Translations under genes and position numbers: made by a program
In this document: one piece after another, positions 1 through 9,414 of the stretch
Numbering within the stretch: position 1 is the first letter of the stretch
Layout of the letters: each line of letters opens with the position of its first letter
Notes under the pieces: generated by a model
The model's database searches: none
Seen by the model: only the letters and a program-made list of their open reading frames with translations
Told to the model about the DNA's origin: nothing
From: a virus
Lineage: Duplodnaviria > Heunggongvirae > Uroviricota > Caudoviricetes
Length of the DNA: 12,647 nt
Direction: 5' to 3' (one strand)
Virus record (IMG/VR): IMGVR_UViG_2671180422_000004

Positions 1-642
1 TTAATCGGACGCTTTTAAATTTTTATTTTTCCCAGCAGAAAAATTAGCTTTCCCGCTGTTTTGCAACTCAACAAGAGGAGATAACCGTCGGTAAACAGCC
101 AAAAGTATCTTTAACTGAACCAGTTCATCTGCCCCCGATAGTTGAACCAAGTTTTTACGTTGTTCTTCACTAAGTGCCATCACAGATTCAAGTGATTTAA
201 CTGCGTCAGAAACAAGTTCAATCTCTTTAATTTGATTCTGTATACGCAGCTTCTCTGATTTCAACTTTGCCCATTCTCTTTGTCGATATGTACGCATCAC
301 CTGATCGTAAACTTTGTTGGCAGCCAGAATACTTCCACCAACAGCAGTAACTAACTCAGCAATCTGCCAAGAGATATCAATAAGAGCAGACAATTCAATA
401 AAGCCAGGAGAGGCATACTGAATTTTTTTCACTACAGGACGTAAATCTGGTGGAGTCGCACTGTAAGCCCCTCTAAAAAAGTTCACCACACTGTGCCCAC
501 CCTCCCAAGGCATTGTTGAATATCCTCTTGATCCTCCTTTTAGGCCATAAAAAAAACCATATAGCTGCAAATACTCTTTCGTTAAGACCGCGAAATCAGC
601 TAACTCCCAACGATTATCAAGCTCAATTATAACTTTTTCCAT
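1..642 (-). CDS. Hypothetical protein, 213 aa; AT-rich accessory ORF beyond ogr, function unknown
   Basis: Complete minus-strand ORF: ATG at 642-640, TAA stop at 3-1 (the window starts exactly at its stop). GGTGG SD-like element a few nt upstream. Visibly lower GC than the adjacent P2 genes. C-terminal half is K/E/L/Q-rich (coiled-coil-like). I recognise no catalytic motif. Confidence 0.55.
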   Translation of the reverse strand: MEKVIIELDNRWELADFAVLTKEYLQLYGFFYGLKGGSRGYSTMPWEGGHSVVNFFRGAYSATPPDLRPVVKKIQYASPGFIELSALIDISWQIAELVTAVGGSILAANKVYDQVMRTYRQREWAKLKSEKLRIQNQIKEIELVSDAVKSLESVMALSEEQRKNLVQLSGADELVQLKILLAVYRRLSPLVELQNSGKANFSAGKNKNLKASD

Positions 643-1922: not shown

Positions 1923-2741
1923 AACGCCCTTGCCGGTGGGCTTCTCTGTGCAGACGGCCAGTGGCGGCAGATTGTCACCATTGAGGACGCGCTGAAAGGC
2001 GGCTGCACGCTGTTCGACATTGAGCAGCTCAAACGTGAAAACAGCGCCGACGATTTTAAAAACCTGTTCATGTGTGAATTTGTTGACGACAAGGCGTCGG
2101 TGTTCCCGTTCGAGGAGCTGCAACGCTGCATGGTCGACACGCTGGAAGAATGGGAAGACTATGCGCCGTTTGCCGCGAATCCGTTCGGCTCCCGCCCGGT
2201 ATGGATTGGTTACGACCCGTCACACCGTGGCGACAGCGCCGGATGCGTGGTACTGGCACCGCCGGTGGTGGCCGGTGGCAAATTCAGAATACTTGAGCGT
2301 CACCAGTGGAAAGGCATGGACTTTGCCACTCAGGCGGAATCCATCCGCAAACTCACCGAAAAATACAACGTCGAATACATCGGTATTGATGCCACCGGCC
2401 TCGGTGTCGGCGTGTTCCAGCTCGTGCGCTCGTTCTATCCCGCCGCGCGCGATATCCGCTACACACCGGAAATGAAAACCGCAATGGTGCTCAAGGCAAA
2501 AGACGTCATCCGCCGTGGCTGTCTGGAATATGACGTCAGCGCCACCGACATCACCAGCTCGTTTATGGCTATCCGCAAGACCATGACCAGCAGCGGACGC
2601 AGCGCCACGTATGAGGCCAGCCGCAGCGAGGAAGCCAGCCACGCCGACCTCGCCTGGGCGACCATGCACGCCCTGTTAAATGAGCCACTCACCGCCGGTA
2701 TCAGCACCCCGCTGACATCCACCATTCTGGAGTTTTACTGA
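1902..2741 (+). pseudogene. P: 5'-truncated terminase large (ATPase/nuclease) subunit gene P, C-terminal about half retained
   Basis: Translation contains the terminase nuclease-domain signature ...RPVWIGYDPSHRGDSAGCVVLAPP...GKFRILERHQWKGMDFATQAESIRKLTEKYNVEYIGIDATGLGVGVFQ... and ends with a TGA overlapping the Q start (TGATG). P2 gpP is about 590 aa by recollection, so the N-terminal ATPase half is missing. The ORF-track start at 1902 is a GTG; the frame is open back to 1809, where an in-frame TGA sits. Confidence 0.75.
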
Positions 2742-3775
2742 TGAGCAAGAAAAAAGGGAAAACACCGCAACCTGCGGCCAAAAAAATGACCGCCAGCGCC
2801 CCGAAAATGGAAGCATTCACCTTTGGCGAGCCGGTACCGGTACTCGACCGCCGTGACATTCTGGATTACGTCGAGTGCATCAGTAACGGCAGATGGTATG
2901 AACCACCGGTCAGCTTTACCGGTCTGGCAAAAAGCCTGCGTGCTGCCGTGCATCACAGCTCACCGATTTACGTCAAACGTAATATTCTGGCCTCAACATT
3001 TATCCCGCATCCGTGGCTTTCCCAGCAGGATTTCAGCCGCTTTGTGCTGGATTTTCTGGTGTTCGGTAATGCGTTTCTGGAAAAGCGTTACAGCACCACC
3101 GGTAAGGTCATCAGACTGGAAACCTCACCGGCAAAATATACCCGTCGTGGCGTGGAGGAGGATGTTTACTGGTGGGTGCCGTCCTTCAACGAGCCGACAC
3201 CTTTCACGCCCGGCTCCGTGTTTCACCTGCTGGAGCCGGATATCAATCAGGAGCTGTACGGCCTGCCAGAATATCTGAGCGCCCTTAACTCTGCCTGGCT
3301 GAATGAGTCGGCCACGCTGTTCCGCCGCAAGTATTACGAAAACGGCGCTCATGCCGGATATATCATGTACGTCACCGATGCCGTGCAGGACCGCAACGAT
3401 ATCGAAATGCTTCGCGAAAACATGGTTAAGTCGAAAGGCCGCAACAACTTTAAAAATCTGTTTCTCTATGCCCCGCAGGGGAAAGCTGACGGCATTAAAA
3501 TTATCCCGCTCAGTGAAGTGGCAACGAAGGACGATTTTTTTAATATCAAAAAAGCCAGCGCCGCTGACCTGCTGGACGCGCACCGCATCCCCTTTCAGTT
3601 GATGGGCGGCAAGCCGGAGAACGTCGGGTCACTGGGAGATATTGAGAAAGTGGCAAAGGTCTTTGTCCGCAATGAGCTTATCCCGCTACAGGACAGGATC
3701 CGCGAGATAAACGGCTGGCTCGGTCAGGAGGTCATCCGCTTTAAAAACTACTCACTGGACACTGACAACGGCTGA
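2741..3775 (+). CDS. Q: Portal (capsid portal vertex) protein Q, 344 aa
   Basis: 344-aa product MSKKKGKTPQPAAKK...FKNYSLDTDNG, same length and lysine-rich N-terminus as P2 gpQ as I recall it. ATG at 2741 overlaps the P stop (coupled operon). Followed by a terminator. Confidence 0.92.
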   Translation: MSKKKGKTPQPAAKKMTASAPKMEAFTFGEPVPVLDRRDILDYVECISNGRWYEPPVSFTGLAKSLRAAVHHSSPIYVKRNILASTFIPHPWLSQQDFSRFVLDFLVFGNAFLEKRYSTTGKVIRLETSPAKYTRRGVEEDVYWWVPSFNEPTPFTPGSVFHLLEPDINQELYGLPEYLSALNSAWLNESATLFRRKYYENGAHAGYIMYVTDAVQDRNDIEMLRENMVKSKGRNNFKNLFLYAPQGKADGIKIIPLSEVATKDDFFNIKKASAADLLDAHRIPFQLMGGKPENVGSLGDIEKVAKVFVRNELIPLQDRIREINGWLGQEVIRFKNYSLDTDNG

Positions 3776-3780
3776 ACATC

Positions 3781-3802
3781 GCCGCCTGCGGGCGGCTTTT
3801 TT
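3781..3802 (+). terminator. Intrinsic terminator after Q
   Basis: GCCGCC (3781-3786) / loop TGCG / GGCGGC (3791-3796) followed by TTTTTT (3797-3802), 6 nt after the Q stop. Confidence 0.6.
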
Positions 3803-3944
3803 ACATCCCGTCATCACGCCCTCACACGCTCACCACCGCACAAAACAGTCCGCAGGCAAACCAACGCCTCAACGGACAGACTAAGCGCCGTCACGACGCG
3901 CTGAGACGCTGAAAAAATAAAATCAGCACCACCGCCAGCGCGCA

Positions 3945-3963
3945 GTGCTTTCCCCGCCTCGCC
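3945..3963. other. cos site: 19-nt cohesive-end sequence of P2 type
   Basis: Plus strand reads GTGCTTTCCCCGCCTCGCC, the reverse complement of GGCGAGGCGGGGAAAGCAC, which I recall as the P2 19-nt cohesive end. It sits where expected, between the Q end and the tin/old-equivalent region. Confidence 0.7.
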
Positions 3964-4057
3964 CGCCCGCTTCATGGGGCGGTTTTGATGCAACCTCGTA
4001 TTAAAGGGGACACCATAGCCCATCAAACCTCAGACTTCGCCCCTAGCTAACGTTTAT

Positions 4058-4087
4058 GAATGCAATGTAATGCAACTTAATGCAAGT
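4058..4087. repeat. Three tandem 10-bp units (GAATGCAATG / TAATGCAACT / TAATGCAAGT) about 60-90 bp upstream of the cargo gene; candidate regulator-binding array
   Basis: AATGCAA heptamer recurs at 4059-4065, 4069-4075 and 4079-4085, with exact 10-bp (one helical turn) phasing, in the AT-rich leader before the SD (AAGAGGA, 4134-4140) and ATG 4147. Confidence 0.45.
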
Positions 4088-4146
4088 TATGGTAATGATA
4101 ATTCTGCGTTAACAATTAAACTAATGTACCTGTAAGAGGATAAAAA

Positions 4147-6630
4147 ATGTCTGGTTTTTTCCTTGATTTAACCAAGCTTTCGCCCAGTGTAAATAGCGAC
4201 ACAGCGATTCCACCGCGAGATATATTTACAGCTCTACCGAGCAAAGACACCAAATTTCAATACCCTCGAGATGTGCAATCAGAGGTCTGGGAAAAATGGT
4301 ATGAAGCAAGGAGAAGCCCAACCAATGTAATAAAAATGAATACCGGAAGCGGTAAAACTTCAGTTGGGTTAATCATTCTTAAAAGCTGTATAAATGAAGG
4401 AGAAGGTCCCGCTGTATATGTTGTTCCTGACAACTATCTAGTTGAGCAAGTGGTTTTGGAGGCTAATCAACTTGGTATACCTGTAACTCAAGATGAGAGG
4501 TCCCCCAAATTTATTGCAGGTAAAGAAATTTTAGTTACAAATATATTCAAAGTGGTTAATGGACGTTCTGCATTTGGCGTTGGAGATGATGGACAAAGAA
4601 TACCAATAGGTTCTATAATAATTGACGATGCTCACGCTTGCCTTTCTTCAATTGAAGAACAATTCTCCATTAGCATTCAAAAAAACAACCCTGCCTATGA
4701 TAAATTATTCAGAATTTTTGAAAATTCACTAATGACACAAGCTGGTGCAAAAACACTAGAGATAAAATCCGGCGATAGAAATGCTTATGTGAGAGTTCCA
4801 TTTTGGAAATGGCAAGAAAGCATAAATGATATAATGACAATCTTGTTAGAAAATAAAGACCATGATGACTTGAGTTTCAAATGGCCATTAATAAAAGACA
4901 ATCTAATATTATCGAAATGCGTTGTAAGTGCTTCCAAAATAGAGATATCACCTCATTGCATACCAATCCAAATGATCCCAAGCCTATCAAACGCAAGAAG
5001 AAAAATATTCATGACAGCTACTCTTGTCGATGAATCCATTCTAGCGAGCCACTTCGGAATAACGGATGAATCACTCTCTAATCCGATAACACCAAAAACA
5101 ATTGGTGATATTGGTGATAGAATGATACTAATGCCTCAGGTTATAAACCCTAGTCTTTCTGATGTAGATATCAAAGCTATGTGCAAGGAGATATCCTCCA
5201 AACATAATGTTGTTGTAATTGTACCATCCGATTACAGAACTAGATTTTGGCAAGATGTTGCAGACAGAATATTAGATAAAAATACAATTTATCAAGGTGT
5301 ACAAGAATTAAGGACACAACATGTTGGCTTAGTAGTCCTAGTTAATAGATATGATGGTATTGATTTACCAAATACCGCATGTCGTCTATTAGTAATAGAT
5401 GGACTTCCTGACGTTCGTAGACTAATAGATAAAGTCTCACAAAGCTTATTGCTTGGAAGCGAAAAAACCAAAGATGAAATTATCCAGAAAATTGAACAAG
5501 GAATGGGGCGAGGAGTGAGATCAAGCGACGACTTCTGCGGAGTGATCTTACTTGGCAAAGCATTAAATGGCGCTGTTTTCCTTGGCTCCTCCTTAGAAAG
5601 GTTTTCTCCAGCAACGAAAGCACAAATTCAACTTTCACAGCAATTGGTATCGATACTGCCGGATACAACTATTGATTCAATCAAAGGTGCTCTTGATTAT
5701 TGTCTGTTACGCAATTCTGACTGGGTCTCAAAAAGCAAAGGTATATTGACTGGCTTAACATTGGAAAATAAGCAGATTGACCAGCATACTATAAATAAAA
5801 GATTGGCATATGACTTAGCATCACGAAATATGTTTCAACAAGCCGCTTTAACTCTAAAAAATGATAGTAGTACAGCTGACAAAGTTTATAAGGGTTATCT
5901 AAAAGAACATGCTGCGGAATATGTAAACTTATATGACAAATCTGAAGCTCAGATATTGCTTCAGTCTGCATCAAACGATAACTATCGGGTATTAAAACCA
6001 CTAATCGGCGTAACATATAATAGACTTAATGGTGCGGCACTTGAACAGGCCAGGGAATGTAGCTCCTATCTCAGAAGTAATTTTGAATCGGCCAATCAAG
6101 TCGTTGTGCATACTAATTCAATAATAGAAAACCTTATTTTCTCCGAGGGCACATCGAATCCCTTCGAAGATGCTATCGAAAAAGTTGCATATTTGGTCGG
6201 TTTTCGTAGCCAACGGCCAGAAAATGATACAGGTAAAGGACCTGACAATTTATGGGCAATGGGAGAAAACAATTATCTAGTAATTGAATGCAAAAATGGA
6301 GCAACCGCAGAAAGAATAAGTAAGCATGACTGCAATCAGTTAAATGGGTCGGGTGCATGGTTCAGAAACATGTATGATCAAACTGCTACCGCCACACCTA
6401 TAATGATACATCACTCTAATATGCCTGAATATGCCGCAACACTAAACGAAGGGTCTCGAATAATGACCATAAATGATCTTGAACGTTTTAAAGCATCTAT
6501 CCTCAGTTTTATCACGGCCATTTGTACAAGTGATAAACGACACGATGAGATATTTATAAGAGAACAATTGATCACATGTAAATTACGTGCATCAGACATA
6601 GTTGAAACCTATACGCGAAACCCTCGTTAA
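4147..6630 (+). CDS. Helicase-nuclease fusion protein, 827 aa: N-terminal SF2 DExH-type helicase core plus C-terminal PD-(D/E)xK nuclease-like domain; candidate anti-phage defence/exclusion protein
   Basis: Strong SD AAGAGGA 6 nt before ATG. Helicase motifs in order: I NTGSGKT (aa 65-71; nt 4339-4359), Ia AVYVVPDNYLVEQ, II IIIDDAHA (DDAH, aa 160-163; nt 4624-4635), III FMTATL, V YDGIDLPNTACRLLVIDGLPD, VI QGMGRGVRSSDDFCGVILLG. C-terminal FEDAIEK ... GPD (D700; nt 6244-6246) ... VIECK (E714/K716; nt 6286-6294) fits an E..PD..ExK restriction-endonuclease-like active site. GC clearly lower than the phage backbone (about 30-43% in two 60-nt samples I counted). Confidence 0.85.
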   Translation: MSGFFLDLTKLSPSVNSDTAIPPRDIFTALPSKDTKFQYPRDVQSEVWEKWYEARRSPTNVIKMNTGSGKTSVGLIILKSCINEGEGPAVYVVPDNYLVEQVVLEANQLGIPVTQDERSPKFIAGKEILVTNIFKVVNGRSAFGVGDDGQRIPIGSIIIDDAHACLSSIEEQFSISIQKNNPAYDKLFRIFENSLMTQAGAKTLEIKSGDRNAYVRVPFWKWQESINDIMTILLENKDHDDLSFKWPLIKDNLILSKCVVSASKIEISPHCIPIQMIPSLSNARRKIFMTATLVDESILASHFGITDESLSNPITPKTIGDIGDRMILMPQVINPSLSDVDIKAMCKEISSKHNVVVIVPSDYRTRFWQDVADRILDKNTIYQGVQELRTQHVGLVVLVNRYDGIDLPNTACRLLVIDGLPDVRRLIDKVSQSLLLGSEKTKDEIIQKIEQGMGRGVRSSDDFCGVILLGKALNGAVFLGSSLERFSPATKAQIQLSQQLVSILPDTTIDSIKGALDYCLLRNSDWVSKSKGILTGLTLENKQIDQHTINKRLAYDLASRNMFQQAALTLKNDSSTADKVYKGYLKEHAAEYVNLYDKSEAQILLQSASNDNYRVLKPLIGVTYNRLNGAALEQARECSSYLRSNFESANQVVVHTNSIIENLIFSEGTSNPFEDAIEKVAYLVGFRSQRPENDTGKGPDNLWAMGENNYLVIECKNGATAERISKHDCNQLNGSGAWFRNMYDQTATATPIMIHHSNMPEYAATLNEGSRIMTINDLERFKASILSFITAICTSDKRHDEIFIREQLITCKLRASDIVETYTRNPR

Positions 6631-6639
6631 ACAGTAAAA

Positions 6640-6662
6640 GACCACCTCCTAAGGAGGTGGTC
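6640..6662. terminator. Hairpin between the convergent cargo gene and gene A; likely terminator, better on the minus strand
   Basis: GACCACCTCC (6640-6649) / loop TAA / GGAGGTGGTC (6653-6662), starting 10 nt after the cargo stop. On the minus strand the stem is followed by TTTTAC; on the plus strand the U-tract is poor (CTTGTATAAT). Confidence 0.5.
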
Positions 6663-6869
6663 CTTGTATAATAAAAAGAACCAGTTTTTATTGTTAATAA
6701 TACAATTCTCGAATTTCAACATAGACTTATTGTACCACCAGTAAAATCATCAATATTAATATATAGAAAAAAAGAAATGTCGATTGTTTGTACGTAGCGT
6801 AATCATATTAACATATACAGATAAACAGCAACCTTACCATTATGCAACCAATCTAAAACATTATGTTTA

Positions 6870-9149
6870 TTACTCTGAATAACCAGAAAACCCACTCCAC
6901 TCATCTACACTAGGATATGAAAATTGCTTTTCATTGTAATTGACGATCGCACCGCGTACTAACGCCTCAAGCTCCCATCGCTGCGGCCTGATACCGTTTT
7001 GAGCAAGGTCAACACGGATACGGGTGATTTGCAATCGTTCAGACCGGGTCAGTCTGGCCGATGGTGCAATTTCATGTGGTTTTAACGGGCTTCCGTTTCT
7101 TTGCTGACGACCTGGCGTTCTCCGACCGTGTTTTAATGCACCCCTGAGCGCCCTCACGACCTCCGGGTCATTCCATTCGATAACACCGTCATCAACCAGA
7201 TTTAGCACTGCTGCGGCGTGCTCAGAAGGTGTGGGAGCCGGTAACGAAGTATCACCACCGGTGAGCTTTCCACAGTTATTGACAGGACTCCGAGGCGCGG
7301 CGATGCCGCTTTTTAAAGTCAAAGGCTCAACGACCGGAACTTTCGGCACAATGCGCCAGTCCGTCGTTCTGGTGATATGAATATGACGCGCGCCGAGATG
7401 CGGCGCGTAAATGCCGACCACTCTCTCGACTTCTTCCTCGTACTCGTTAACGTCATCCGACAGACTACGGGCGACCCTGACAGTCTGACAATCGCGCGGG
7501 ACATTTGCCCCGCCCTGCGCGCTGATATACAGCGCAAAATCACCACTGTCTGCGGCGGCGCGTGCAGCCTCGACGCGCTCGTCAAACTCATCAGCAATGC
7601 TGACGCCGCGAGGCAATTTGCGTAGTTCACGGTAAGCCCCCATTGTCGGCAGGCCAACCGTTTTAAATTGCGGAATGCGCCACGTTGACGCCCATGCGGT
7701 AACAGCCGCTGCAGTGTCTTTCAGCGGCCTGCCGGTGTCGTTATCGAGCTGACCATCCAGTGCATAGCCGTCGATGTTTTTTGAAATGTATTTCGCGATA
7801 TATCCCGCAGCACCGCCCCGGTTAAGGTGTTTTGCCTGAAAACGGTTTCGCGCGGCTCCTCTTTCGTCGCCATCCTCTTTGAGCGCATAGCGACGCATGA
7901 TTTCGATAATCTGGTTACGCTGGCGTGGATGACAAAAAAGCATCATATGCCAGTGCGGCGTTCCGTCGTGGTGTGGCTCGACGACTCGCAAACCGTAGAC
8001 CTGTAAATCATTATCCTTGAATGCCGTGCGCATCAGGCTCCAGATACGGCAGAGATAACGCTGCGCATCCTTTGGATTAAATGCCTCATCGTTCCAGCCG
8101 TGATTAAGCTGAACGGTTTTACTTTCGCCTTTTCCGACCTGACGTGTCGGGTGATACTTTGACGGCGCGGTCAGCGTGATAAACATCCCCACATCACCCT
8201 CTGCGGCGGCGTAACGCTCAATACCGGCAATGGTGTTCATCAGCTCCATCCGGCGAATTTCAGGATTAGAAATACTGCCCATCACCTTACTGATAAGGTC
8301 GATGCGCTCGCCGGTTTCCCTGTTTTCAAGGTCACACGATTTAAGAAATTCCAGATTTGCCTGGCGGCGCGCACGCACATCACGAATGGCGTGTTTACTG
8401 GCATAAGGAGAACGGTCTTTATTGACCTCCCCGACAGCTATCAGTAACGCCTCATGCCAGCGCATACGCTGGCCTTTAAGCTGATGAGTCCACCACTCAT
8501 CGTTAAACAGGCGGGCAATGGCAGAATATGCCTGCCTCGTGGTCATCTGTCCTTTACGGTATTTTTTCCAGTAGAGCGGGGAAATATTGAAAGCACGTGC
8601 AGCGCCAGCAACATGACCATACAGGTGAGCCTGCGCCTCATCCGTAAACAGCGATTCTTTTTCACCATGCGCATCAACCCATGCATCGCAGAGTTCCTCA
8701 TACATCATGAAAAGCTGCGATGAGATACGGGCGGCAAACTTTTTCAGCTCCTTGTCATTCATTCCCGGCAGGCGCGCATAGTGGTCACGCTCTGCCAGAA
8801 ACAGCAACGACGCGTCGGTGTTCATTTCATGGCGCTGATTCACACGCTCAATGCGCGGCCATAAACGACGCTGAAAAGTAGATGTGAGGAAATAAAACCC
8901 GTGCACCGGGCTTTTATTGCGCCGGATGTAGTCATAGCGTGAAGTAAACAGCGAGCGCAAAAAGTAAGGCAGGCGGTTAATCGTGGATAAAACACCTTGC
9001 ACCTGACGCATCTCGTCACGTGTAAGAGGTCTTTCGCGCCCGACAGCCTCGCGTGGCGCGTTCCATGCATAAGCACCGGTAAACGCCTTACCGGTGCCTG
9101 CGGTAAATGCTGACGGAGGGACAAAACGCCCGGAGGCTTTAACGGCCAT
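6870..9149 (-). CDS. A: Replication initiation protein A (rolling-circle initiator endonuclease), about 759 aa
   Basis: Translation from ATG 9149 starts MAVKASGRFVPPSAF..., which matches my recollection of the P2 gpA N-terminus and length (about 761 aa). The ORF-track start at 9191 is a TTG giving 14 extra residues, which I reject. The last ~25 codons use AT-rich codons unlike the rest of the gene. Confidence 0.9.
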   Translation of the reverse strand: MAVKASGRFVPPSAFTAGTGKAFTGAYAWNAPREAVGRERPLTRDEMRQVQGVLSTINRLPYFLRSLFTSRYDYIRRNKSPVHGFYFLTSTFQRRLWPRIERVNQRHEMNTDASLLFLAERDHYARLPGMNDKELKKFAARISSQLFMMYEELCDAWVDAHGEKESLFTDEAQAHLYGHVAGAARAFNISPLYWKKYRKGQMTTRQAYSAIARLFNDEWWTHQLKGQRMRWHEALLIAVGEVNKDRSPYASKHAIRDVRARRQANLEFLKSCDLENRETGERIDLISKVMGSISNPEIRRMELMNTIAGIERYAAAEGDVGMFITLTAPSKYHPTRQVGKGESKTVQLNHGWNDEAFNPKDAQRYLCRIWSLMRTAFKDNDLQVYGLRVVEPHHDGTPHWHMMLFCHPRQRNQIIEIMRRYALKEDGDERGAARNRFQAKHLNRGGAAGYIAKYISKNIDGYALDGQLDNDTGRPLKDTAAAVTAWASTWRIPQFKTVGLPTMGAYRELRKLPRGVSIADEFDERVEAARAAADSGDFALYISAQGGANVPRDCQTVRVARSLSDDVNEYEEEVERVVGIYAPHLGARHIHITRTTDWRIVPKVPVVEPLTLKSGIAAPRSPVNNCGKLTGGDTSLPAPTPSEHAAAVLNLVDDGVIEWNDPEVVRALRGALKHGRRTPGRQQRNGSPLKPHEIAPSARLTRSERLQITRIRVDLAQNGIRPQRWELEALVRGAIVNYNEKQFSYPSVDEWSGFSGYSE

Positions 9150-9414
9150 ATGAGCCAAAAGCCTCTGAACAACGCTTGCTGAGTTGCTCAACCTGCGCGT
9201 TTAAATCAGCAAAAGATTTTGCGCTTCCGGTCAGAATATCGTGATGCATCAGGCCGGAAACGAGCTGGCCTAATTTCGGGTAATAACCAACCACCGCCAG
9301 CCATTCCTGACCGGCGTTTTTACCGCTTTCCGCTCTCTTTTTCTCGTGGAGAATAAACTGAAAGCTGTCACTGGTAACGACATAACGTTCGCCAATTTCA
9401 ATACGAATACTCAT
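9139..9414 (-). CDS. Small early-operon protein, P2 orf83-like (91 aa)
   Basis: ORF in the position of P2 orf83 immediately upstream of A; its start overlaps the orf82 stop (ATGA-type coupling). Confidence 0.7.
   Translation of the reverse strand: MSIRIEIGERYVVTSDSFQFILHEKKRAESGKNAGQEWLAVVGYYPKLGQLVSGLMHHDILTGSAKSFADLNAQVEQLSKRCSEAFGSYGR

Follow-up and report, generated by a model that had tools for sequence, protein, structure and literature searches.

A predicted Hna-family protein in the Q-A slot of a P2-like Escherichia coli prophage

Hna (helicase-nuclease abortive infection) was reported from pSymA of S. meliloti (Sather et al. 2023), and the E. coli Hna tested in that study may or may not be WP_000012516. 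Genetics, biochemistry and cryo-EM structures of the family have been published (PMC13381803), and structures 10UJ and 9YKJ of the S. meliloti protein (SmHna) were reported by Hooper et al. 2026. Hna is a single-gene Abi system with phage SSB as its trigger (PMC13381803; PMC10732053); the latter source, by secondary citation, has both S. meliloti and E. coli Hna responding to phage SSB. SmHna is a Mg-dependent 3'-5' ssDNA exonuclease inhibited via ATP-driven dimerisation, and its trigger is a T7-gp2.5-like SSB. Unwinding could not be detected for SmHna, and its nuclease is not driven but inhibited when ATP binds. Hna is further described with a reduced Arch and without an Fe-S cluster, and its authors anticipate that the recognised factors will vary from one orthologue to another (all PMC13381803). 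A purified protein named EcHna, for which the preprint gives no accession, was a monomer/dimer mixture and was inactive in vitro on all DNA substrates tried, where other nucleases worked (bioRxiv 10.1101/2025.07.10.664194).

The window, by which we mean the whole analysed stretch of 12,647 nucleotides, encodes an 827-aa protein recorded in RefSeq as WP_000012516.1, "DEAD/DEAH box helicase family protein". XPD/Rad3/DinG helicases and CasDinG, including exonuclease-bearing DinG, share its SF2 subfamily fold and its spelling of motifs V/VI. In contrast to the 827-aa protein, XPD/Rad3/DinG carry a 4-Cys Fe-S domain in HEL1, which is missing here, and the Arch is shortened. Exonuclease-bearing DinG has its exonuclease at the N-terminus, whereas the 827-aa protein has a C-terminal PD-(D/E)XK domain instead. 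Unlike these helicases, SmHna showed no unwinding activity. Hachiman HamAB, Nhi, DdmD and Upx are other helicase-nuclease defences that sense phage SSB or DNA ends, but their architecture and partner proteins are unlike those of the 827-aa protein, and PADLOC gave no significant match to any of the four beyond the generic helicase core.

Family membership and domain architecture

Judged by sequence comparison, the 827-aa protein is a member of the characterised Hna family. A phmmer search against S. meliloti Hna (PDB 10UJ/9YHN/9YKJ) returned an end-to-end alignment (E 7e-121), a family profile spanned residues 1-841 of the 845 in SmHna (E 6.8e-163), and BLASTP gave 32% identity to SmHna across 751 aa (E 2e-129). 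PADLOC model PDLC04986 (PDC-S28) matched the 827-aa protein at full length, covering positions 2-826 of its 831 (1054.6 bits, E 0), and SmHna scores 1018 bits on the same HMM. Since the validated SmHna matches this model, PDC-S28, itself a computational candidate label for a single gene, corresponds to the Hna family. NCBIfam yielded only sub-threshold generic helicase matches and no match to a dedicated Hna model.

The two proteins are of one length class, with 827 aa here and 845 aa in SmHna. Their domains follow each other in the same order, namely HEL1, a reduced Arch, HEL2, a helical linker and PD-(D/E)XK (Table 1), and both are encoded by stand-alone genes on mobile elements. They differ in setting: SmHna resides on the rhizobial megaplasmid pSymA, and the 827-aa protein in a prophage hotspot of P2-like elements in Enterobacteriaceae. 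A preliminary description, made from the letters alone, had called the protein a candidate uncharacterised factor and its family unassignable by reading alone, while noting a likeness to Hna. The searches above overturn the first statement and show the likeness to be membership of that family, and the evidence supports renaming the RefSeq entry as Hna.

Table 1. Features of the hna locus, in window coordinates (strand "." where none applies)
Feature	Position	Strand	Detail or basis
Portal gene Q, flanking	2741..3775	+	Pfam Phage_portal; RefSeq annotation
P2 cos cohesive-end 19-mer, GGCGAGGCGGGGAAAGCAC	3945..3963	-	exact match
Low-GC cargo segment, P2 Q-A hotspot	3993..6869	.	GC 0.367; variable among P2-like prophages
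Shine-Dalgarno AAGAGG	4134..4139	+	sequence; 7 nt 5' of hna ATG
hna-family gene, 827 aa	4147..6630	+	ATG start; intact ORF; PADLOC PDC-S28; PDB Hna match
HEL1 core, residues ~40-175	4264..4671	+	Pfam ResIII/DEAD; 46.5% identity to SmHna in block
HEL1 sites: Q-motif R41/Q44; Walker A GSGKT (K70); DDAH	GSGKT 4345-4359; DDAH 4624-4635	+	alignment to SmHna
Insertion between motifs II/III, residues ~176-284	4672..4998	+	SmHna alignment, 34% identity; corresponds to reduced Arch-like insert of Hna
HEL2, residues ~285-480	4999..5586	+	TAT, YDGIDLP, QGMGRGVRS; Pfam Helicase_C_2; Foldseek XPD/DinG/CasDinG after Hna
All-helical linker, residues ~481-660	5587..6126	+	AF2 secondary structure H488-661; 23% identity to SmHna
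PD-(D/E)XK nuclease domain, residues ~661-800	6127..6546	+	catalytic-residue motifs
Predicted catalytic residues E674; P699-D700; E714-C715-K716	6166-6168; 6241-6246; 6286-6294	+	
Perfect 13-bp hairpin, terminator-like	6637..6665	.	sequence; between convergent hna and gene A
Replication endonuclease gene A, flanking	6870..9191	-	Pfam Phage_GPA, E 2.9e-124; RefSeq annotation

The helicase and nuclease motifs quoted in the preliminary description were all found at the residues it had named, namely GSGKT at 67-71, DDAH at 160-163, TAT at 290-292, YDGIDLP at 402-408, QGMGRGVRS at 451-459, FEDAIEK at 673-679, GPD at 698-700 and VIECK at 712-716. Pfam places ResIII/DEAD over residues 40-172 and Helicase_C_2 over 400-471; given these matches and the whole-protein match to a solved homologue, the motifs are not a product of chance. 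Between the Walker A lysine K70 and motif II D160, a span of 90 residues, C81 is the only cysteine, which argues that an Fe-S cluster domain is missing.

Alignment to SmHna pairs the functional residues of the two proteins. In the helicase part, SmHna K72, D162-D163, R36 and Q39 correspond to K70, D160-D161, R41 and Q44, and in the nuclease P712-D713, E727 and K729 correspond to P699-D700, E714 and K716. Every catalytic and ATP-coordinating residue mutated in the SmHna structural study is kept in the aligned 827-aa protein, and K70, D160/D161, R41/Q44, P699/D700, E714 and K716 do not vary when 20 family members are aligned. The least conserved part is formed by the N-terminal 59 residues, with about 20% identity to SmHna. 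Here T30, D31 and P34 of the SmHna dimer loop are unmatched position for position in an uncertain stretch of the alignment, and the window protein has D34-T35...P40. Its loop residues 32-39 are predicted to be disordered (AF2 pLDDT <50), as in the SmHna loop, and lie in the homologous place before the Q-motif; K33, Y39, P40 and R41 are invariant within its own clade.

Structure prediction leads to the same family. The AF2 model of the full-length protein (pLDDT 80) has the Hna monomer as its best Foldseek match (E 1e-58, TM 0.67), followed by XPD, DinG and CasDinG at E 1e-10 to 1e-11. The nuclease domain alone again finds Hna as its closest structural match. Both fold readings of the preliminary description hold in these searches: the C-terminal signature belongs to a domain predicted to adopt a true nuclease fold, and the helicase core, thought Rad3/DinG-like from motifs V and VI, is Rad3/XPD/DinG-like. 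The profile and fold searches it had proposed point to Hna and not to a housekeeping repair helicase. Its picture of a stand-alone, defence-type protein combining an SF2 ATPase with a PD-(D/E)XK nuclease is likewise supported.

The prophage slot and its cargo

The gene lies where the preliminary description had put it, between cos/Q and gene A, with Phage_portal and Phage_GPA matches on the two sides and an exact copy of GGCGAGGCGGGGAAAGCAC near the portal gene. This 19-nt pattern, the P2 cohesive end, occurs with 0 mismatches where 0.01 are expected by chance. The portal gene and gene A have GC contents of 0.529 and 0.533, and hna one of 0.374, as the earlier remark on composition had indicated. 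Apart from opposite-strand ORFs inside hna, the gene is the sole ORF of at least 60 aa in the cargo segment. No partner methyltransferase is encoded in or beside this segment, in agreement with the first reading. The start region of hna is kept in homologous loci. A simple scan of positions 3993-4146 for a sigma-70-like promoter upstream of hna found none over consensus thresholds, and an Rfam scan of the whole window gave zero matches at the gathering threshold.

In other P2-like prophages, matching to the window ends at about position 3992 and returns within or near gene A, and prophages with the same flanks carry different cargo, for example a HEPN protein or retron Ec48. The locus is the exchange hotspot named in the preliminary description, with hna as sole cargo here. 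All complete E. coli genomes that carry hna (70 of 70) have it between Q and A. Among 16 IMG/VR loci, homologues of portal and gpA lie on either side of the gene in 12, which are 75-100% identical. Rousset et al. 2022 list WP_000012516 as P2-hotspot cargo (their Table S5); compared with the other Q-A hotspot cargo of that study, hna here is single-gene cargo. P2 old/tin occupy the same slot, adjoin cos, are convergent with gene A and have the same presumed role in competition between phages. The 827-aa protein is nonetheless unrelated in sequence to Old, an OLD-family ATPase-Toprim nuclease, or to Tin, and no Old or Tin model is among its PADLOC matches at E up to 1.

Hna thereby joins the defence systems trafficked via the cos-proximal hotspot of P2. 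Beyond annotation the importance of this is small, for the family is already characterised and the slot well known. We found no paper that joins Hna, P2-like and hotspot. The host prophage is decayed: it is a 12.6-kb remnant, and in a second inspected genome gene A is split by an IS element.

Proposed mode of action and rival readings

We propose, with a probability of roughly 0.8, that the gene is an Hna-family single-polypeptide abortive-infection system carried as sole Q-A cargo by a decayed P2-like E. coli prophage. In the uninfected cell the protein would bind ATP via its DinG/XPD-like SF2 core and form an auto-inhibited homodimer with the C-terminal PD-(D/E)XK domain disengaged. A phage SSB would break this state and free the monomers, which would then act as Mg-dependent 3'-5' ssDNA exonucleases. 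Unchecked, they would degrade DNA carrying 3' single-stranded ends and thereby kill or arrest the cell ahead of progeny release. P2 uses host SSB, and because of this reliance P2 itself would presumably not trip an Hna-family protein. The preliminary description had spoken of an ATP-dependent helicase-nuclease, and this part is probably wrong in view of the behaviour of SmHna, in which bound ATP holds the nuclease back and unwinding was not detected. Since EcHna acted on none of the DNA substrates offered to it, biochemical details may also differ from those of SmHna.

This last point bears on a reading that we consider unlikely, in which the protein belongs to the Hna family and has a trigger or mode different from that of SmHna, for example a trigger other than a gp2.5-like SSB, or a direct attack on phage replication intermediates without killing of the host. 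Besides the inactivity of EcHna, it draws on the poor conservation of the N-terminal dimer/SSB-competition region (about 20% identity), on dimer-loop residues that are not identical to those of SmHna, and on the differences in recognised factors that the Hna authors expect among orthologues (PMC13381803). Against these points, phage SSB is said to activate both S. meliloti and E. coli Hna (PMC10732053), and the loop is invariant at four positions within the clade and predicted to be disordered like its SmHna counterpart. As a tentative extension, which we think rather doubtful, the Hna clade of the enterobacterial P2 hotspot may form a distinct branch with a diverged N-terminal sensor/dimer interface and a trigger that is not gp2.5-like, perhaps domesticated after prophage decay.

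Far less probable is an enzyme of DNA metabolism that benefits the phage as a helper of replication, recombination or packaging. Proximity to cos and replication gene A, together with the DinG/XPD-like fold, would suit such a role, but the slot is variable and holds unrelated cargo elsewhere, and the GC content of hna is 16 points under that of the phage backbone. Moreover, of about 2190 genomes in which these flanks are present only 70 have the gene, homologues both close and distant are found on plasmids and on mobile elements other than phages, and hna persists in prophages that are past replicating or assembling. We give the least credence of all to an orphan Res subunit of a Type III restriction system or a housekeeping DinG-type repair helicase. 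The Pfam ResIII match (E 1e-9), weak PADLOC typeIV_DinG matches and the structural neighbours DinG and XPD point that way. The ResIII match is, however, confined to residues 40-168, and ResIII and DEAD alike span only the generic HEL1 domain; as the cargo segment encodes no Mod methyltransferase, the protein has no Fe-S cluster domain and the context is a mobile element in place of a conserved chromosomal locus, we reject both identities.

Homologues in other elements

Distant homologues of hna are lone genes on integrative or conjugative elements, on plasmids and in a Lamassu-containing island. Their neighbours are wholly different in the Pectobacterium, Pseudomonas and Legionella loci, so that no partner gene is conserved. 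We considered and rejected a two-gene system with a 213-aa ORF: the gene upstream of hna in Pectobacterium and the ORF at window positions 1-642 share only 23% identity over 82 aa in BLASTP, in stretches that do not correspond between the two proteins, and the Pectobacterium gene has no convincing relative in the window. Their equal length of 213 aa was treated as a coincidence. The ORF at positions 1-642 is PD-T4-10_B-like, and the Pectobacterium 213-aa gene has no match.

Among the INPHARED phage genomes, a single distant match was found (30% identity, on a Salmonella contig), and the isolated P2-like phages there are without hna. A second variant is present in E. coli/Salmonella; it is plasmid-borne and only 29% identical.

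Assignment of the protein to the Hna family

Generic libraries see only the SF2 core of the 827-residue hna product (WP_000012516.1, the window protein). Pfam recognizes ResIII/DEAD (residues 40-172) and Helicase_C_2 (residues 400-471), an NCBIfam search returned no match above the cut-off, and PHROGs places the protein in phrog_16128, annotated as "unknown function". Two other sequence searches gave the decisive identifications. The PADLOC model PDC-S28, a single-gene "phage defence candidate", matches the full-length protein with 1054.6 bits, and the PDB contains one strong match (E 7e-121, residues 60-792), the 845-residue chain of entries 10UJ, 9YHN, and 9YKJ. These entries are cryo-EM structures of Hna from Sinorhizobium meliloti (SmHna; Hooper et al., Nat Commun 2026, PMC13381803). 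Since the experimentally validated SmHna reaches 1018.5 bits with the PDC-S28 model, PDC-S28 and Hna are one family, which the window protein fits as well as the founding member does.

A profile built from 20 diverse homologues of the window protein widened the alignment to Hna residues 1-841 (E 6.8e-163). BLASTP against an SmHna sequence reconstructed from the profile alignment gave 32% identity over 751 residues (E 2e-129). Identity to SmHna is about 20% in the N-terminal 59 residues, 46% in HEL1, 34% in both the Arch-like insert and HEL2, 23% in the helical linker, and 30% in the nuclease domain. All SmHna residues at which mutations alter activity (PMC13381803) are conserved in the alignment, and all catalytic and ATP-coordinating residues are present: K72 (Walker A) corresponds to K70 of the window protein, D162/D163 (motif II) to D160/D161, R36/Q39 (ATP coordination) to R41/Q44, P712/D713/E727 (metal coordination) to P699/D700/E714, and K729 (the nuclease-dead mutant position) to K716. 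Apart from the dimer loop, which aligns only with uncertainty, every computationally testable feature of Hna was found in the window protein. The preliminary description's claim of an uncharacterized factor is not supported; its observation was accurate, its functional guess, phage defence, was essentially right, and its motifs all occur at the residues it named (see table).

An AlphaFold2 model based on the 20-sequence alignment (mean pLDDT 80) finds the Hna monomer (E 1e-58, TM 0.67) and the two chains of the dimer as its best PDB matches in Foldseek. XPD, DinG, and CasDinG follow at E ~1e-10, which supports the Rad3/DinG-like core suggested earlier. In contrast to XPD/DinG-type helicases, the window protein contains no Fe-S domain; a single cysteine lies in the 90-residue stretch that separates Walker A from motif II. 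Hna is likewise reported without this domain (PMC13381803). The window protein thus lacks the Fe-S cluster that defines XPD/DinG helicases, and it lacks the Mod partner that defines a Type III Res subunit. The window protein is also unrelated to either P2 Old or Tin.

Features of hna, its product, and the flanking genes
Feature	Position	Strand	Remark
Phage_portal gene (Q)	2741-3775	+	Pfam
Ribosome-binding site AAGAGG	7 nt 5' of hna start	+	sequence
hna ORF	4147-6630	+	ATG start, 827 aa, single long ORF
GSGKT	residues 67-71		window protein
DDAH	residues 160-163		window protein
TAT	residues 290-292		window protein
YDGIDLP	residues 402-408		window protein
QGMGRGVRS	residues 451-459		window protein
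FEDAIEK	residues 673-679		window protein
GPD	residues 698-700		window protein
VIECK	residues 712-716		window protein
Perfect 13-bp GC-rich hairpin	6637-6665		7 nt after hna stop, between convergent hna and gene A
Phage_GPA replication endonuclease gene (A)	6870-9191	-	Pfam

Probable mechanism by homology to SmHna

Binding of ATP causes SmHna to form a homodimer through an unstructured loop in the N-terminal HEL1, a state that leaves the nuclease domain disengaged and without activity. Unwinding was not detected, and the weak ATPase is stimulated by ssDNA. Once free, the monomer acts as a 3'-5' ssDNA exonuclease that requires Mg or Mn and halts at duplex junctions. A gp2.5-like SSB from a T7-like phage binds SmHna, splits the dimer, and switches on the nuclease despite ATP, while SSB variants of escape mutants fail in this. 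Mutations that raise nuclease activity also raise toxicity, and the outcome is abortive infection (all PMC13381803).

By homology, the window protein would operate in the same mode: an inactive dimer held by ATP, released by SSB to degrade ssDNA as an exonuclease, leading to abortive infection. The earlier term "ATP-dependent helicase-nuclease" probably inverts the role of ATP, which inhibits SmHna. Residues 32-40 of the window protein form a clade-invariant loop, predicted to be disordered, directly before the Q-motif. Because this loop occupies the homologous place but the three SmHna dimer-loop residues have no one-for-one match, regulation by dimerization and SSB is plausible, if unproven, in the window protein.

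Prophage context and cargo slot

The window is identical to a stretch of E. coli strain 26561 (NZ_CP027118.1) and represents a whole 12.6-kb P2-like prophage remnant between fieF and cpxP, with int, C, cox, B-region genes, A, hna, cos, Q, a terminase/gpD fragment fusion, ogr, and a small gene. A C-terminal gpD fragment (-) adjoins a C-terminal terminase fragment (+) at 1083-2741 (junction ~1839-1853), and both are pseudogenes in RefSeq. The P-to-D head, tail, and lysis genes are therefore all deleted. In E. coli M217 (12802-15104 of that locus), the hna prophage retains structural genes and carries a gene A split by ISEc12. Both inspected prophages are thus defective with hna intact.

As described previously, hna lies between cos/Q and A and is poorer in GC (37.4%) than the portal gene (52.9%) and gene A (53.3%). 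The 19-nt P2 cohesive-end sequence has a single exact match at 3945-3963 (0.01 expected by chance). A 70-residue ORF (3814-4026, -) overlaps cos and matches phrog_17350 (unknown function, E 7e-42); either a small conserved P2 ORF or an ORF prediction across conserved cos-region DNA could account for it. Upstream of hna (60-90 bp from the start), AATGCAA occurs three times with exact 10-bp phasing (4059, 4069, 4079; span 4059-4085, +). These repeats are kept in two loci with 89-90% identity (L017 and L019), partly in L020, and are absent from the upstream regions of L021 and the Pectobacterium locus. They could constitute an operator or promoter element; a promoter scan found no consensus sigma-70 promoter around them. 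The hairpin downstream of hna is probably a bidirectional terminator.

Among 5426 complete E. coli genomes, 70 contain hna with at least 99% identity, always flanked by Q and A, and ~2190 genomes carry other cargo between these flanks, such as a HEPN protein or retron Ec48. In IMG/VR, 12 of the 16 related loci (identity 75-100%) lie between homologues of portal and gpA that diverge to varying degrees. One of the twelve, L021 (UViG_2852055501_000009, 2476-8844), is a divergent P2-like phage (gpA 50%, portal 63% identical) with a 75% identical hna flipped in the Q-A slot, an arrangement that fits either an independent insertion or an inverted cassette. This slot is the hotspot reported by Rousset et al. 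2022, and their Table S5 already places WP_000012516 there as a one-gene "ResIII/DEAD" arrangement; among the systems they tabulate as tested, neither this accession nor any entry of "ResIII" or "DEAD" occurs. Family, mechanism, structure, hotspot, and the presence of the accession in the hotspot are all already published.

The prophage end holds a 213-residue ORF (1-642, -), located between ogr and the host gene fieF, with a low GC content (0.40). No match was found in Pfam or PHROG, while PADLOC model PD-T4-10_B matches with E 1.3e-34. In the two-gene toxin-antitoxin defence system of Vassallo et al. 2022, PD-T4-10_B is the toxin, and the antitoxin proved undeletable; no obvious ORF for a PD-T4-10A partner is present upstream. 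The presence of this segment in just ~4 complete E. coli genomes points to another variable slot.

Homologues in other mobile elements

More distant relatives (48-54% identity; Pectobacterium also given as 80%) stand alone in other mobile contexts. The Pectobacterium homologue (CP051652.1, 6894-17953 of the locus) resides in an integrase-bounded island with a Lamassu-like gene; an unannotated 213-residue gene precedes it, and genes encoding MC3 and LmuB_C (Lamassu) domains follow. Relatedness of this gene to the 213-residue ORF of the window is not convincing. Pseudomonas aeruginosa carries a homologue in an integrative element, and Legionella pneumophila one (51% identical; L007-L009, 7331-7952) in a TrwC/TraI conjugative element. 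The latter lies directly 3' of a Gp49 (HigB-like) and HTH pair, which may be an associated toxin-antitoxin or regulator module.

Matches also occur in 268 plasmid records, among them plasmids of rhizobia, Agrobacterium, Enterococcus, and Salmonella. On plasmids of ~37.7-41 kb from Salmonella and E. coli (H45-H49, e.g. NC_019138.1 and CP099007.1), a separate Hna-family variant is encoded with just 29% identity to the window protein, so that the name "E. coli Hna" could refer to either lineage in published work. According to a secondary source (PMC10732053), phage SSB activates Hna of both S. meliloti and E. coli. A purified "EcHna" was a monomer/dimer mixture, inactive on the DNA substrates tried (bioRxiv 10.1101/2025.07.10.664194). 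The family numbers in the thousands (at least 3958 matches at E <=1e-5), and the distribution of homologues fits that published for Hna, a widespread single-gene system with horizontal distribution (PMC13381803).
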